A stretch of DNA of 17,104 nt from IMG/VR virus record IMGVR_UViG_2534681701_000012, one strand, 5' to 3'. Made by a program: the position numbers and the translations under genes. Under the pieces are notes generated by a model, which saw nothing but the letters and a program-made list of their open reading frames with translations, was not told the DNA's origin and searched no databases. Position 1 is the stretch's first letter. Every line of letters begins with the position of its first letter. The stretch comes from a virus (Duplodnaviria > Heunggongvirae > Uroviricota > Caudoviricetes). This document shows positions 4,005 through 9,687 of this stretch, piece by piece.

Positions 4005-4193
4005 TTATCCAGCCGGTGTTTCGTTATTCAGGTACAGCGATACTTTTTTTAGCGGGAGGCATTCACCAGAAATTTTTTGCTCGTCTCTTGCCTGGAGGCA
4101 GGATTCTTTACTTGCATAAATTCCGGTAATCACATTCTGTGATTCACCCGTTATAAGAAAAACCGTCATCATCAGTGCAAATGCTGAAGTCAT
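4005..4193 (-). CDS. ydfD: YdfD-like small protein with hydrophobic N-terminus
   Basis: 62-aa ORF whose ATG overlaps the dicB stop (ATGA). N-terminal MTSAFALMMTVFLITGE is signal/TM-like. Position directly after dicB matches ydfD of the Qin prophage. Confidence 0.6.
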   Translation of the reverse strand: MTSAFALMMTVFLITGESQNVITGIYASKESCLQARDEQKISGECLPLKKVSLYLNNETPAG

Positions 4194-4378
4194 TGACGTT
4201 CTCCGAAAATACCAAGTTCAAGAAGAGCAATTCGGGAAAGTATGGAATTATCATTGAGCAGATAAGGCTCATATTTCCTCATATTAATGGCATCTTCAGT
4301 AAACTCCCGGTTACTGAGCAGAACACCAATATCAAAACAACCTTCAGACGTATTAACGTTTGGTAATAACGTTTCCAT
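4190..4378 (-). CDS. dicB: DicB-like cell-division inhibitor
   Basis: 62-aa ORF; N-terminus METLLPNVNTSEGCFDIGV...FTEDAIN closely matches my recollection of E. coli DicB (MKTLLPNVNTSEGCFEIGV...FTEDAIN). Lies downstream of the DicF-like element, as in the Qin dicB operon. Confidence 0.8.
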   Translation of the reverse strand: METLLPNVNTSEGCFDIGVLLSNREFTEDAINMRKYEPYLLNDNSILSRIALLELGIFGERQ

Positions 4379-4556
4379 TATCGCGTCCTCAACAATGAAT
4401 TTTGTGATGCAGTGCCTGGTGCCTCCAGGTGACGTTAACCAGTTAACAATTAACGCCGGATTAGTTGATGCTCGTTACGCCCGTAAAATACCGCCTTACT
4501 GCTTTAACTGTTCCGCGTGCGCATAGCCGCATTCACCGCATCACAAAATTCACTTT

Positions 4557-4596
4557 AAAAAGGGCGGATATCCGTTTCCGCCGAATCACCAGAAAA
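4557..4596 (-). ncRNA. dicF: DicF-like small RNA (short variant) ending in an intrinsic terminator
   Basis: Minus strand reads UUUCUGGUGAUUCGGCGGAAACGGAUAUCCGCCCUUUUU. The 5' UUUCUGGUGA and 3' CCGCCCUUUUU match the ends of K-12 DicF as I recall it. 6-bp stem GGCGGA/UCCGCC with an 8-nt loop plus U-run. The following sequence toward dicB also looks like the K-12 dicF-dicB spacer. Ends approximate. Confidence 0.6.
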
Positions 4597-4897
4597 GTGA
4601 TAACAGAGGGCGTTGCTGCGGGGTTGTCACTTAAGCGTATGGTCAACCTGACAACCCGGTGTCCTCAGCGGGGAAGGAATAACCCCGCCATACTTACCGC
4701 CGCGCCATTTCGCGGATTGCCACAACCGGAAGCGCACGGTCGAATTAAATTTAACGACTACCTACAGAGAGACGAACTTCGCCGTGCGCTTTCGCGTTAT
4801 GCCCTGACTTTTCAGGGATATATCCTTTTCAGTAAACTGTCAGTGCCGGATTCTTATCCGTGTCCGGCGCACGCACTCTACCTCACCTGTGAATAAA

Positions 4898-6644: not shown

Positions 6645-6926
6645 TTGGCTATGAACTTAAGAGACTATTTAAAAGAGAAACATATCACCCAGCTACAGTT
6701 TGGGAAGCTAACGGGTTTATCTCAGGTGCATGTAAGTCGAGTGCTGGGGGGCTATGAAAGATTCAGCCCTGAAAAAGCATTACGTGTTGCTGAAGTAACG
6801 AATTTCGAGGTTACACCTCATGAACTCCGGCCTGATATTTACCCGAATCCAACCGACGGCTTACCTGTTGGATTCAAGGCTAACACACCAAATGCATCGG
6901 AGTTGATTCATGAAAATCAGGCATGA
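6645..6926 (+). CDS. ydaS: Cro/YdaS-like HTH protein
   Basis: 93-aa ORF with HTH LQFGKLTGLSQVHVSRVLGG, first gene of the rightward operon, overlapping the next gene start. Resembles Rac YdaS. Confidence 0.75.
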   Translation: MAMNLRDYLKEKHITQLQFGKLTGLSQVHVSRVLGGYERFSPEKALRVAEVTNFEVTPHELRPDIYPNPTDGLPVGFKANTPNASELIHENQA

Positions 6927-7335
6927 GCACATCCGCATGGCGATGAATGCCTGGGCGCATCCGGACGGTGAAAAAGTTCCGGCAGCTGAAATAACCCGGG
7001 CTTATTTTGAGCTTGGTATGACGTTCCCGGAATTATATGACGACAGCCATCCGGAAGCCCTGGCTCGCAATACCCAGAAAATTTTCCGCTGGGTGGAGAA
7101 AGACACTCCTGATGCGGTTAAAAAAATTCAGGCGTTGTTACCAGCGATCGAAAAAGCAATGCCGCCTCTGCTGGTGGCCCGAATGCGCAGCCACAGTTCA
7201 GCTTATTTTCGGGAGCTGGTGGAGACGCGGGAACGACTGGTGAGAGACGCTGATGATTTTGTCGCAGTGGCGATCGCTGGTTTCAACCAGATGAATCGTG
7301 GTGGCCCGGCGGGAAATATTGTGGTTGTGCATTGA
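6910..7335 (+). CDS. ydaT: YdaT-like protein (CII-position regulator/toxin family of Rac-type prophages)
   Basis: 141-aa ORF; GGAG Shine-Dalgarno 7 nt upstream. Sequence MKIRHEHIRMAMNAWAHPDGEKVPAAEITRAYFELGMTFPELYDD matches my recollection of Rac YdaT. Confidence 0.75.
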   Translation: MKIRHEHIRMAMNAWAHPDGEKVPAAEITRAYFELGMTFPELYDDSHPEALARNTQKIFRWVEKDTPDAVKKIQALLPAIEKAMPPLLVARMRSHSSAYFRELVETRERLVRDADDFVAVAIAGFNQMNRGGPAGNIVVVH

Positions 7336-7406
7336 CTGACAATATTCATACCGGACCGCTTCCGGTAATTCGTGAGTAAAAAGATTCGGTATCAGAAGAG
7401 GTGAGT

Positions 7407-8447
7407 ATGGCTAATGCCTGGCTCAGGTTATGGCATGACATGCCAAATGATCCTAAGTGGCGAACAATTTCCAGGGTGTCAGGACAGCCAATTGCAACAG
7501 TGATGGCGGTGTATATCCACCTTCTGGTGAGCGCGTCACGAAATGTCACGACATGTCACGGCGTGTCACTACGTGGTCACATTGATGTCACGACGGAAGA
7601 TTTAGCAAGTGCGCTTGATGTGACGGAAGAAGTAATTGATTCAATTTTACAGGCAATGCAGGGGCGGGTACTTGATGGAGATTTAATCACCGGATGGGAA
7701 AAACGCCAGGTACTGAAAGAGGACAATGGCAACGTTTCACAAACCGCGAAATCCCCGGCAGAGCGCAAGAGAGCGCAGCGCGAGAGGGAAAAATTACGAA
7801 AACAGAATGAGGGGTGTCACGACGAGTCACGCATATGTCACGACATGTCACGACGAGTCACGACAGATAAAGATACAGATAAAGAATTAAACCCCACACA
7901 TAACGCGCACGTGCGCGAGAGTGCTCCGACCAGTGAGTCGAGTGGTACGCCGTTGCAGGCAGCAGAACCTGCATCCCTGGATGGACTGAGCGAACCCATC
8001 GGGAAATTTCCGATGGTCGATGACTGGCATCCGTCGCCGGATTTTCGACGACGGGCTGCGTTGTGGGGGATGGCTTTGCCGGAGCCGGAATTTACACCTG
8101 CTGAACTTGCCGCTTTCTGGGACTACTGGGCAGCGGAGGGGAAAGTTTTCACGCAGGTTCAGTGGGAGCAGAAATTCGCCCGTCACGTAAATCACGTCAG
8201 GGCGCAGGTTAAGCCAGTCAGCAAGGGGGTAAACCATGCAGCAGCACCAGGTGGCACCGCATCACGGGCAGTTCAGGAAATTCGGGCAGCACGTGAGCAG
8301 TGGGAACGTGAAAACGGATTTATCAGCGACGGAAACGGTCTGGAAGCTGTGGGAACTCATGGGGGAGGTTTATTCGAACCGCTGGACCCAGAAGAACGGG
8401 GCCGCACCTTCGAAGCTCTGGATTGCACAGATTGGCGCGATGACTGA
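7407..8447 (+). CDS. Replication initiator / replisome organiser (functional analogue of lambda O)
   Basis: N-terminal MANAWLRLWHDMPNDPKW fits the phage replisome-organiser N-terminal motif. Iteron clusters lie inside the ORF and a P-like gene follows. Start taken at ATG 7407 (GAGGTG Shine-Dalgarno) rather than GTG 7401. The 3' end is uncertain because of the long overlap with the next gene. Confidence 0.75.
   Translation: MANAWLRLWHDMPNDPKWRTISRVSGQPIATVMAVYIHLLVSASRNVTTCHGVSLRGHIDVTTEDLASALDVTEEVIDSILQAMQGRVLDGDLITGWEKRQVLKEDNGNVSQTAKSPAERKRAQREREKLRKQNEGCHDESRICHDMSRRVTTDKDTDKELNPTHNAHVRESAPTSESSGTPLQAAEPASLDGLSEPIGKFPMVDDWHPSPDFRRRAALWGMALPEPEFTPAELAAFWDYWAAEGKVFTQVQWEQKFARHVNHVRAQVKPVSKGVNHAAAPGGTASRAVQEIRAAREQWERENGFISDGNGLEAVGTHGGGLFEPLDPEERGRTFEALDCTDWRDD
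7535..7893. repeat. Putative replication origin: two iteron clusters plus AT-rich tract inside the O-like gene
   Basis: GTCAC(G/T) repeated 6 times at 7535-7591 and 5 times at 7815-7861, spaced 10-11 bp (one helical turn). Second cluster is followed by AGATAAAGATACAGATAAAGAATTAAA. Confidence 0.6.
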
Positions 8448-8901
8448 GCAGCAAATCCGACAGGTCTGCCGCCAGTGCATGGACCGCTGCCGGGCGGGTG
8501 AAACATGGCCTCCGGACCTGGCTGAGTTTGTGGCGCTGATTTCGGAGAGCGGAGCCAATCCATTCGGTCTGACGGTGGATGCTGTGATGGAGGAGTACCG
8601 CCGCTGGCGCAATGAGTCCTGGCGATATGACGGAAGTGATAAGTACCCGTGGCCTCAGCCTGTGCTGTATCACATTTGCCTTGAGATGCGTTCAAAGGGG
8701 ATTGAGCGCCAGATGACCGAAGGGGAATTAAAACGGCTTGCAGAACGGCAGCTGACGAAATGGGCAAAGCATGTTAGTAACGGCCTGAGCGTTCCGCCAG
8801 TCCGGCGACAACTGGCGGCACCCAAACGCCCGTCGGGGCCAACGCCAATTGAGTTGCTGAAACAGGAATATGAACGCCGGAAAGCGGCTGGGTTTGTTTG
8901 A
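8236..8901 (+). CDS. Lambda P-like replicative helicase loader
   Basis: 221-aa ORF; C-terminal half (YPWPQPVLYHICLEM...GELKRLAERQLTKWAKHV) aligns by eye with lambda P (YPWKSNAHYWLVTNL...AELRRKAADELVHM). AAGGGGG Shine-Dalgarno 7 nt upstream of ATG 8236. Overlaps the O-like ORF by 212 nt; alternative starts at 8359 or 8440. Confidence 0.8.
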   Translation: MQQHQVAPHHGQFRKFGQHVSSGNVKTDLSATETVWKLWELMGEVYSNRWTQKNGAAPSKLWIAQIGAMTEQQIRQVCRQCMDRCRAGETWPPDLAEFVALISESGANPFGLTVDAVMEEYRRWRNESWRYDGSDKYPWPQPVLYHICLEMRSKGIERQMTEGELKRLAERQLTKWAKHVSNGLSVPPVRRQLAAPKRPSGPTPIELLKQEYERRKAAGFV

Positions 8902-8933
8902 GTTGAGAAGTAATTTTTACCGGGAGGAAATTT

Positions 8934-9687
8934 ATGGAGACTGTTTTTGACGCACTGAAAGCGATGGGAAAAGCCACGTCGGTAGAGCTGGCTGCGCGAC
9001 TTGATATCAGTCGTGAAGAAGTGCTGAACGAACTATGGGAACTGAAAAAGGCTGGTTTCGTTGATAAAAGCGCGTACACCTGGCGTGTGGCTGATAACAA
9101 CGTTCAGCAGGAACAGCCAGCGCAGGCAGAACTGCCGGAAGAAACCACCACAGCAACAGTAGCGAAAATCTCAGAGTGCGATTTAACCGCAACGATTGAA
9201 CAACGCGGACCACAAACGGCGGATGAACTGGCTACGTTTTTTCGGCATCACATCACGCAAAGTGGCTTCAACGCTGGCAATGGCAATCAGTAAAGGTCGT
9301 CTGATTCGCGTTAATCAGAACGGTAAATTTCGTTACTGCATGCCGGGCGATAATTTACCAGCAGAGCCGAAAGCTGCATCGGTAGCGGAAACTGATGGTA
9401 AAGCCTTTCCTCAGCCAGCCGGTGTTGCGTTACCAGTACTGGAAGCTGCAACACAGGAAGATATTAAAACCGAAACTGTGGCGGACATTGTGCAGTCGTT
9501 GCCATCGTTTACTGAAACGCAAGCGGATAACCTGATTTTACCATCGCTGCATATAGCAAATCGTGAACTGCGTCGGGCGAAAAGTCATGTCCAGAAGTGG
9601 GAACGAGTCTGCACCGCGCTGCGGGAGCTGAACAAGCACCGGGATATTCTTCGGGATATTACCGCGACCGGAGAGCTGCAGCGGTGA
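8934..9687 (+). pseudogene. Tandem winged-helix protein gene split by a 1-nt frameshift in a T6 run (possibly DUF1627-type)
   Basis: ORF 8934-9293 (GGGAGG Shine-Dalgarno) and ORF 9196-9687 overlap in different frames. Reading through T6 at 9237-9242 as T5 joins ...TADELATFF to [23 protein letters not shown], a second copy of the N-terminal wHTH-like segment [30 protein letters not shown]. Fused product would be about 251 aa. Confidence 0.55.

Follow-up and report, generated by a model that had tools for sequence, protein, structure and literature searches.

A lambda-type replication module with overlapping initiator and loader genes

The DNA analyzed here, a stretch of 17,104 nucleotides (nt) from a virus of the Caudoviricetes (IMG/VR record IMGVR_UViG_2534681701_000012; the whole stretch is referred to as the window), belongs to a Rac-type lambdoid prophage of Escherichia coli. 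It carries a gene for a replication initiator resembling protein O of phage lambda, followed by a gene for a helicase loader resembling lambda P, and the two open reading frames (ORFs) share 212 nt in different frames. This overlap had been singled out in an earlier note by a model that had read the sequence alone, and we found it exactly where that note had placed it (positions 8236-8447), with the O-like frame open to 8447. The signals named there are present as well, i.e., a Shine-Dalgarno (SD) sequence AAGGGGG in front of ATG 8236, and two later in-frame ATG codons at 8359 and 8440, the second of which forms a start/stop junction with the O-like stop codon. From the data described below, we consider it likely that the arrangement is a real and conserved dual-coding overlap in the lambda-type initiator/helicase-loader module of a Rac-like prophage. 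The features on which the argument builds are the following:

7407..8447, + strand: O-like replication initiator gene from the ORF list (346 residues; stop codon TGA at 8445-8447; in-frame GTG at 7401)
8236..8901, + strand: P-like helicase loader gene, long form (221 residues; PF06992, PHROG 109, AlphaFold2 and Foldseek; ATG kept in 34/34 of the loci compared below)
8236..8447, + strand: dual-coding overlap of 212 nt (O residues 277-346 in frame 0, P residues 1-70 in frame +1)
8223..8229, + strand: SD sequence AAGGGGG for P, within O codons, six bases (TAAACC) before ATG 8236
8359..8361, + strand: internal ATG (P Met42), a conserved residue in helix 29-46 and in the W.LWE.M.EIY motif; possible minor alternative start
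8440..8447, + strand: ATGACTGA junction of the P Met69 codon with the O stop codon TGA 8445-8447; P start according to the Prokaryotic Genome Annotation Pipeline (PGAP) and RefSeq

The closest genome, that of E. coli O15:H18 ST69 (CP102488), is 99.8% identical to the window across positions 7900-8920, and the phages Rac-SA53 and PPompW/Stx2a are 94.5% identical to it. The local gene order is dicA-like repressor, ydaS/dicC-like gene, ydaT-like gene, O-like initiator, P-like loader and DUF1627 gene; the replication module was matched in 1256 of 5426 complete E. coli genomes.

The 221-residue P-like protein corresponds to full-length lambda P

The P-like protein scores 60.3 bits against the Pfam family PF06992 (Phage_lambda_P; gathering score 26) in an alignment that begins at residue 55, and its residues 19-220 cover positions 22-235 of the 236 positions of PHROG 109 ('P-like helicase loader') with an E value of 5.9e-64. 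Residues 1-68 by themselves still match PHROG 109. We modeled the protein with AlphaFold2 (AF2) from a 29-sequence alignment and obtained a mean predicted local distance difference test (pLDDT) score of 77. The best Foldseek matches of this model were the lambda P chains of structure 9oa1; the fully resolved chain Z aligned over 220 columns, and chains V and Y, which comprise residues ~40-233, aligned over 192-200 columns. These data bear out the statement of the earlier note that the homology to lambda P reaches upstream of both later Met codons.

Residues 1-27 of the P-like protein are predicted to be disordered (pLDDT <50); helices are predicted at residues 29-46, 48-54, 60-67, and 71-86, and the 10-residue blocks across residues 31-100 average pLDDT values of 79-89 (86-89 for residues 31-60 and 79 for residues 61-70). 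Lambda P consists of domain I (residues 1-29), a disordered N-terminal 'lasso,' of domain II (residues ~30-119), domain III, and a C-terminal lasso (domain IV) (PMC12661323). Colinearity with all four domains of lambda P is found for the 221-residue form only. A form of 180 residues starting at Met42 would have its N-terminus within the first domain II helix, and the 153-residue form starting at Met69 would lack domain I together with ~40 residues of the domain II equivalent.

Stand-alone P homologues, encoded beside apparent housekeeping genes and with no initiator gene upstream, are found in two Erwinia genomes (L026 and L030), where the P gene starts 10-27 residues before the W.LW helix. 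The P gene of L026 (2992-3618) follows an ORF (1857-2750) that by eye resembles that for the tRNA 2-thiocytidine synthase TtcA, and the P gene of L030 (2974-3543) comes after a large ORF for a membrane protein (1022-2620), which by eye resembles a component of a phosphotransferase system transporter. These loaders may have been orphaned or domesticated.

The overlap is conserved in relatives of the window

A scan of one genome per species yielded 31 loci that encode relatives of P, to which loci from phage and E. coli genomes were added. Our analysis covers the 34 loci with an intact initiator-loader pair; among them are seven additional loci from E. coli genomes or phages, and about 25 species of the Enterobacterales besides E. 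coli are represented. All 34 loci possess the same geometry, with the P frame at +1 relative to that of O and an overlap of 149-224 nt, across P identities to the window that range from 94% down to 44%. The overlap is present in Escherichia, Salmonella, Citrobacter, Enterobacter, Klebsiella, Kluyvera, Pluralibacter, Pectobacterium, Erwinia, Rahnella, Yersinia, Samsonia, and other genera. When measured against the invariant WPPD motif of P, the ATG of the long form lies 243-273 nt upstream, and the initiator stop codon lies 23-95 nt upstream, the distance being exactly 59 nt in 23 of the loci. The earlier note had asked whether orthologous O proteins end near 8230 or whether long overlaps are conserved in relatives: the latter is the case, and no O orthologue ending near 8230 was found among the compared loci.

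In the non-overlapping parts of the O and P genes, stop codons in the alternative frame occur at a density of 0.043-0.055 per codon, which by our own arithmetic corresponds to a chance of roughly 0.02-0.05 per locus for an open stretch of 70 codons. Given the P protein and the local codon usage, the mean probability per locus that the O frame is open amounts to ~0.25 over the second half and to ~0.04 over the entire overlap. The overlap exceeds chance expectation. A P-silent T that would create a stop codon in the O frame occurs at none of 370 sites within the overlap compared with 283 of 917 sites outside of it (Fisher test), a comparison that serves as a baseline rate only, since freedom from stop codons is what defines the overlap in the first place and the reasoning is to that extent circular.

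Translation initiation signals of the P-like gene

The SD sequence in front of ATG 8236 of the window forms a duplex of -11.8 kcal/mol with the anti-SD sequence. For the equivalents of this position the start codon is ATG in each of the 34 loci and the mean duplex energy is -10.0 kcal/mol, against a background mean of -2.4 kcal/mol inside the O genes; in 31 of the loci the signal falls within the top 0-5% of all O-gene positions. The equivalents of 8359 are ATG in 33 loci (mean of -5.1 kcal/mol), and those of 8440 are ATG in 30 loci, TTG in one, and CTG, i.e., no start codon, in three, with a mean of -2.1 kcal/mol that lies at the background level.

The SD motif itself varies among the loci (GGAGG, GGGAGG, AAGGGG, GAGGTG, AGGAG). 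The O residues that are encoded across the P start codon vary as well (H/N/Y/D followed by A/V/E/G), yet the spelling xAT Gxx is invariant, a pattern that is as expected of selection acting on the P start and not on the O residues. A stop codon located 0-48 nt before this ATG closes the P frame in most loci (TAA 8230-8232 in the window). RNA folding of positions 8186-8285 around the P start revealed no excess structure (z of +0.87), which fits an open and independent ribosome-binding site; the same result speaks against an RNA structure that hides this site and thereby couples the translation of P to that of O. From these signals, from the colinearity with the lambda P family, and from the stand-alone homologues, we infer that ATG 8236 is the start codon of P in the cell, and a minor extra isoform starting at 8359 is possible.

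The 221-residue P protein is present in older GenBank entries (P0001), whereas RefSeq carries shorter forms. In other genera, the RefSeq entries comprise 179-181 residues and begin at the equivalent of Met42; in the seven E. coli genomes inspected, they comprise 153 residues. The RefSeq/PGAP start at 8440 is probably wrong, and both the 153-residue and the 179-181-residue entries are probably truncated at their N-termini. The overlap is thus implicit in older database entries and has been lost from the current RefSeq. In the literature on ydaU/ydaV, on lambdoid O/P overlaps, and on overprinting in replication modules, we found no description of the present overlap and no work on this gene pair.

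The two frames divide the overlap between them

We determined nucleotide diversity by codon phase from codon-guided alignments and calculated the ratio of nonsynonymous to synonymous changes (pN/pS) by the Nei-Gojobori method on 11 closely related sequences; the statistics are pairwise ones. The most variable codon position and the pN/pS ratios of the four segments are as follows:

7995-8235, O only: O position 3 most variable (0.50); O-frame pN/pS 0.22
8236-8334, overlap: O position 3 most variable (0.42-0.49); O-frame pN/pS 0.27, P-frame pN/pS 0.69
8335-8447, overlap: P position 3 most variable (0.38-0.44), O position 3 lowest (0.14-0.20); O-frame pN/pS 1.73, P-frame pN/pS 0.11
8448-8898, P only: P position 3 most variable (0.53-0.58); P-frame pN/pS 0.15

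The dominant frame hence changes from O to P near 8315-8335. This division is matched by the predicted structures of the two proteins:

8259..8312, + strand: O-frame helix 285-302 (ASRAVQEIRAAREQWERE), the conserved part of the O tail (AF2; motif in the tail alignment; O-type periodicity)
8320..8440, + strand: P-frame helices 29-46, 48-54, and 60-67, start of the equivalent of lambda P domain II (AF2; P-type periodicity)

The O helix overlies the disordered residues 1-27 of P (nt 8236-8316), and O residues 303-346, a Gly-rich and acidic tail with pLDDT <50, overlie the first helices of P. In the models, order in one frame is therefore predicted to lie opposite disorder in the other.

Synonymous change is reduced in each frame within the overlap, and the effects of the constraint on the dominant frames are modest. 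In either half, the subordinate frame has left a trace that is weaker or confined to particular sites. In the close set, the proportion of synonymous changes (pS) is down by ~40% in each dominant frame. Across 8236-8334, the synonymous diversity of the O frame is 0.40 compared with 0.54 expected (p 0.057), again a modest effect. Across 8335-8444, the O frame has a synonymous codon diversity of 0.075, where its amino acids would lead one to expect 0.52 (p 7e-5), which is a trivial consequence of P coding in that segment. There are two positions at which the reverse influence can be followed: at the P codon of column 8389 the encoded residue varies (Q/A/T/V/R/I) while its third base is G in 32 of the 34 loci, so that the O codon GAA (Glu) is kept in 32 of them, and P Ser47 is encoded by TCG in 24 of 26 Ser codons, which preserves O Glu324. 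This retention of third bases indicates that the O tail, in its acidic EP.D.EE(R/W) motif at the least, is itself selected. Some lineages can do without the far end of the tail; in these, the O stop codon lies 92-95 nt before WPPD.

Taken together, the most probable course of events is one in which ribosomes that translate the 346-residue O-like initiator would continue to TGA 8445-8447, while separate ribosomes would initiate at ATG 8236 by means of the AAGGGGG sequence within the O codons and would produce the full-length 221-residue P-like loader in the +1 frame. The segment from 8236 to ~8315 would be shaped mainly by O, which possesses a conserved helix there (ASRAVQEIRAAREQWE), and P would contribute a poorly conserved and disordered N-terminus like the domain I 'lasso' of lambda P. 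The segment from ~8320 to 8447 would be shaped mainly by P, with the first helices of domain II, and would encode in the O frame a disordered Gly/acidic tail in which selection would keep just a few acidic residues (EP.D.EE). Among the possibilities listed in the earlier note, it is the one of two proteins encoded by the same DNA in two frames that is supported by the conservation of the overlap and of the ATG and SD signals, by the colinearity with lambda P, and by the suppressed synonymous change.

Alternative explanations of the overlap

Several observations weigh against a dual-coding overlap. The 34 loci are related by descent, and counts over loci overstate the number of independent observations. 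Given the O protein, an open P frame across 8236-8334 has a mean probability as high as 0.74, since the O sequence has few Leu, Val, Met, and Ile residues there; part of the conservation of the ORF for the P extension hence follows from the composition of O. The first residues of P, from 1 to 27-33, evolve almost neutrally (pN/pS of 0.69-0.96), i.e., the sequence of the extension matters little, and the synonymous diversity of the P frame over 8335-8444 (0.448 compared with 0.544 expected, p 0.04) is reduced to a modest degree only. The annotation also differs: PGAP/RefSeq lists the 'replication protein P' as a protein of 153 residues from the equivalent of 8440 in all seven E. coli genomes that we inspected (L034-L040, e.g., 3541-4002 in L034), the record of phage Rac-SA53 begins P at the same position, the Stx2_14040 record starts it later still, and the equivalents of 8359 or 8479 are used in other records.

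The earlier note had considered an initiation of P at 8359 or at 8440, and neither gains support as the principal start. A loader made solely from ATG 8359 would comprise 180 residues, would leave the upstream 41 codons untranslated, and would reduce the true overlap to 89 nt. This proposal can draw on the presence of the ATG in 33 of the 34 loci, on an SD pairing somewhat above background (-5.1 vs. -2.4 kcal/mol), on the near-neutral evolution of the extension described above, and on the many database entries of 179-181 residues from Met42, among them the RefSeq 'replication protein P' of Citrobacter, Klebsiella, and Brenneria. It is countered by the position of Met42 inside the confidently predicted helix 29-46 and the conserved motif W.LWE.M.EIY, in which W and LW precede this Met, by the family profile and lambda P, both of which align from residue 19 or earlier, and by the stand-alone homologues, which begin upstream of W.LW. 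It furthermore leaves a strong SD sequence and ATG, located 123-126 nt upstream in 34 of 34 loci, without explanation, and even then an out-of-frame overlap of 89 nt persists; we regard it as unlikely. Initiation at ATG 8440, translationally coupled to the termination of O via ATGACTGA and with an incidental open frame upstream, would agree with the PGAP start in the seven inspected genomes and in Rac-SA53, and the 8-nt start/stop junction resembles a termination-reinitiation site. Against this stand the anti-SD pairing of this site, which is that of the background, and the loss of the ATG in four of the 34 loci; moreover, in 11 loci the O stop codon is not beside the 8440 codon and lies, e.g., 23, 44, 47, 92, or 95 nt before WPPD instead of 59 nt. 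The 105 nt located 5' of 8440 exhibit clear coding periodicity in the P frame with a pN/pS of 0.11, and the resulting protein would be the 153-residue form that is devoid of domain I and a part of domain II. We judge such a start to be very improbable.

The earlier note had also suggested that the C-terminal tail of O might be read-through created by a frameshift. If a frameshift or a lost stop codon had extended O into P, and the real end of O were near 8230, the tail would be an artefact or the product of a pseudogene. The window does contain a homopolymer indel in at least one other place, with T6 at 9237-9242 versus T5 in the ST69 genome, which splits the DUF1627 gene, and disorder is predicted for the last ~44 residues of O, with an O-frame pN/pS >1 over 8335-8444. 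Yet in every one of the 34 loci the O frame continues without a stop into this region, in 23 cases up to a stop codon that occupies the same place with respect to P, and this long overlap with an open O frame throughout the set refutes the suggestion. In addition, the window and the ST69 genome align base for base over 7900-8920 with equal lengths and no net indel; the protein sequence of the tail helix and of the EP.D.EE motif is conserved, even among initiators whose other domains are unrelated; and an O frame open by virtue of P coding is improbable at each locus, as calculated above. There is next to no probability left for an artefact of this kind. Finally, the overlap could serve to produce a regulated O-P fusion, beside the separate proteins, through +1 ribosomal frameshifting or through slippage at the G5 run at 8361-8365. 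With P at +1 relative to O, skipping of a single base anywhere in the overlap fuses the two proteins; in-frame O-P fusion ORFs exist in public assemblies (P0197, in which G5 at 8361-8365 has become G4, and P0176, with a 49-nt deletion between GTGGGAAC repeats, which are direct repeats at positions 8300-8307 and 8349-8356 of the window), and such fusions appear to underlie PHROG 15931 (482 positions). They are rare, with two among the best 120 of 1594 matches, and they arose from two different lesions at the DNA level, which fits mutations or assembly errors. P0108, P0176, and P0197 were accordingly ruled out as evidence for a programmed fusion, since they go back to lesions in the DNA or to assemblies with many errors. 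We identified no known +1 frameshift signal, and no systematic search was made for one; the strong and conserved SD sequence and ATG 8236 already explain the expression of P. A programmed fusion therefore strikes us as highly improbable.

The O tail as an apparent module that travels with P

The O proteins that possess this tail are alike from about the ribosome-binding site of P onward, and their architectures differ upstream of it:

DnaT domain and tail: window, L007, L031
DUF1376, DnaT domain, and tail: P0134
DUF1376 and tail, no DnaT domain: L021, L022
Phage_rep_O (PF04492) and tail: L018, P0150
HTH_36/DnaD_N and tail: L019
No recognized domain and tail: L020, L025, L027, L032

The presence of a common tail under unrelated upstream architectures places a mosaic junction at the P start or just 5' of it, and the O tail and P appear to behave as one module. 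An exhaustive search with the 77-residue tail against 1.8 billion representatives yielded 28 clusters only, and in all seven matches of 317-360 residues the tail was located at the C-terminus; a word-indexed protein search with the O tail alone recovered short partial E. coli entries only. By the exhaustive search, the O tail makes up a narrow family.

In phage lambda, the C-terminal part of O binds P and recruits the P-DnaB complex. By analogy, and with the joint inheritance of tail and P on initiators of differing architecture as indirect evidence, we infer that the O tail, most likely through helix 285-302, is a docking element for P. The first 70 codons of the loader gene might then carry, in their second frame, the docking tail that any initiator needs, and the overlap might keep the two partners genetically inseparable and not just serve compaction; we put this proposal forward tentatively, as a possibility that we rate somewhat below even chances. 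If true, recombination in mosaic prophages could swap the origin-binding part of the initiator without separating the loader from its matching adaptor.

The O-like initiator gene and its iterons

The 1041-nt O-like gene is annotated identically by PGAP in the 99.8%-identical ST69 genome, and public names for its product are 'phage replisome organizer' or DnaT-like single-stranded DNA (ssDNA)-binding domain protein. The following elements lie inside the gene:

8007..8207, + strand: DnaT ssDNA-binding domain, residues 201-267 (Pfam PF17948, 61.6 bits vs. a cut-off of 25)
7533..7595, strand not applicable: first iteron cluster, GTCACGAC-type units with 10-bp spacing (repeat families D1-D3)
7812..7874, strand not applicable: second iteron cluster (repeat families D1, D2, D4, D5), then two copies of ACAGATAAAGA at 7863-7885

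The AF2 model of the O-like protein comprises a confident winged-helix-like N-terminal domain (residues 1-100), a disordered linker, the DnaT domain, which stops short of the overlap, helix 285-302, and the disordered residues 303-346. Against the NCBIfam equivalog model of DnaT (NF002770), the protein scores 97.8 bits, below the cut-off of 201, and it is the DnaT domain alone that matches; by this measure, the O-like protein does not qualify as an orthologue of DnaT. A search with Phage_rep_O (PF04492) did not match the window initiator, which does match PHROG families of the 'replication initiation protein' type.

The two iteron arrays are located ~270 bp apart within the initiator gene and are translated into the repetitive peptide 'VTTCH/CHDESR/MSRRVTT', which is part of the linker predicted to be disordered. 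As in lambda-type initiator genes, the iterons are found inside the coding sequence of the initiator itself and upstream of the loader gene; they presumably represent the origin of the prophage in a lambda-like placement, with two separated arrays.

Neighboring genes

Just 5' of the replication module lie the ydaS-like helix-turn-helix gene (6645-6926) and the ydaT-like gene (6910-7335; Pfam YdaT_toxin), which share 17 nt. The latter gene also extends ~29 nt into the initiator gene in some relatives (e.g., 498-1049 and 1021-2061 in L002). On the 3' side, the extra T in the run at 9237-9242 splits the DUF1627-domain gene into the overlapping ORFs 8934-9293 and 9196-9687; in L034, this gene is unbroken (4035-4787, 753 nt). 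The T6 run is either a sequencing error or the mark of a recent pseudogene, and the difference to the ST69 genome means that homopolymer indels do occur in the window. Two relatives of the segment 8479-9687 (P0030 and P0107) are chimeric ORFs that join DUF1627-protein sequence and the C-terminal part of P in either order, which points to rearrangements, or to errors of assembly, where P and DUF1627 adjoin in some of the E. coli assemblies.

Comparison with known systems

The closest relative of the arrangement described here is the O-P module of phage lambda, with which it has in common the gene order, the iterons inside the initiator gene, and a loader of the same family (PF06992, PHROG 109). 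The two modules differ in the extent of the overlap, which is 4 nt in lambda (39582-39585) and 212 nt in the window, and in the C-terminal half of the initiator, which consists of a DnaT-type domain, a short helix, and an acidic tail in the window, unlike the C-terminal domain found in lambda O. With E. coli DnaT, the window initiator shares the ssDNA-binding domain (PF17948); unlike DnaT, it possesses an N-terminal domain resembling origin-binding domains, internal iterons, and the tail that overlaps P.

For the annotation of such modules, the start codon of the loader is of consequence. The 153-residue entries are devoid of the equivalent of the lasso and of ~40 residues of the domain that holds the loader ring of lambda P together, and structural or functional work departing from the short entries would use a truncated loader. 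If the initiator tail is a docking element for the loader, it would explain how origins and initiators can be exchanged in mosaic prophages while the compatibility of initiator and loader is kept.

The nearest conceptual parallel is provided by the Rz/Rz1 spanins, which are likewise encoded by out-of-frame genes on the same strand whose products cooperate, and whose family comprises embedded, overlapped, and separated architectures (PMC6139136). A similar range of architectures is seen here, from the long overlap of the window through the 4 nt of lambda to the stand-alone P genes of the two Erwinia genomes. The spanins function in lysis and the present pair in replication, and lambda Rz1 is wholly embedded in Rz, whereas only the ends of the O-like and P-like genes overlap. 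Overlapping genes of viruses are enriched in intrinsic disorder (bioRxiv 10.1101/229690; PMC8227390), and the O-like/P-like pair resembles viral overlaps in general in that an ordered segment is predicted to lie over a disordered one and synonymous variation is suppressed. Unlike in typical viral overlaps, neither partner is an orphan protein that arose de novo, since both extend old and widespread families, and the dominant frame switches midway. The module thus offers a clear case, in a bacterial virus, of a long same-strand overlap between members of two old and well-characterized protein families.

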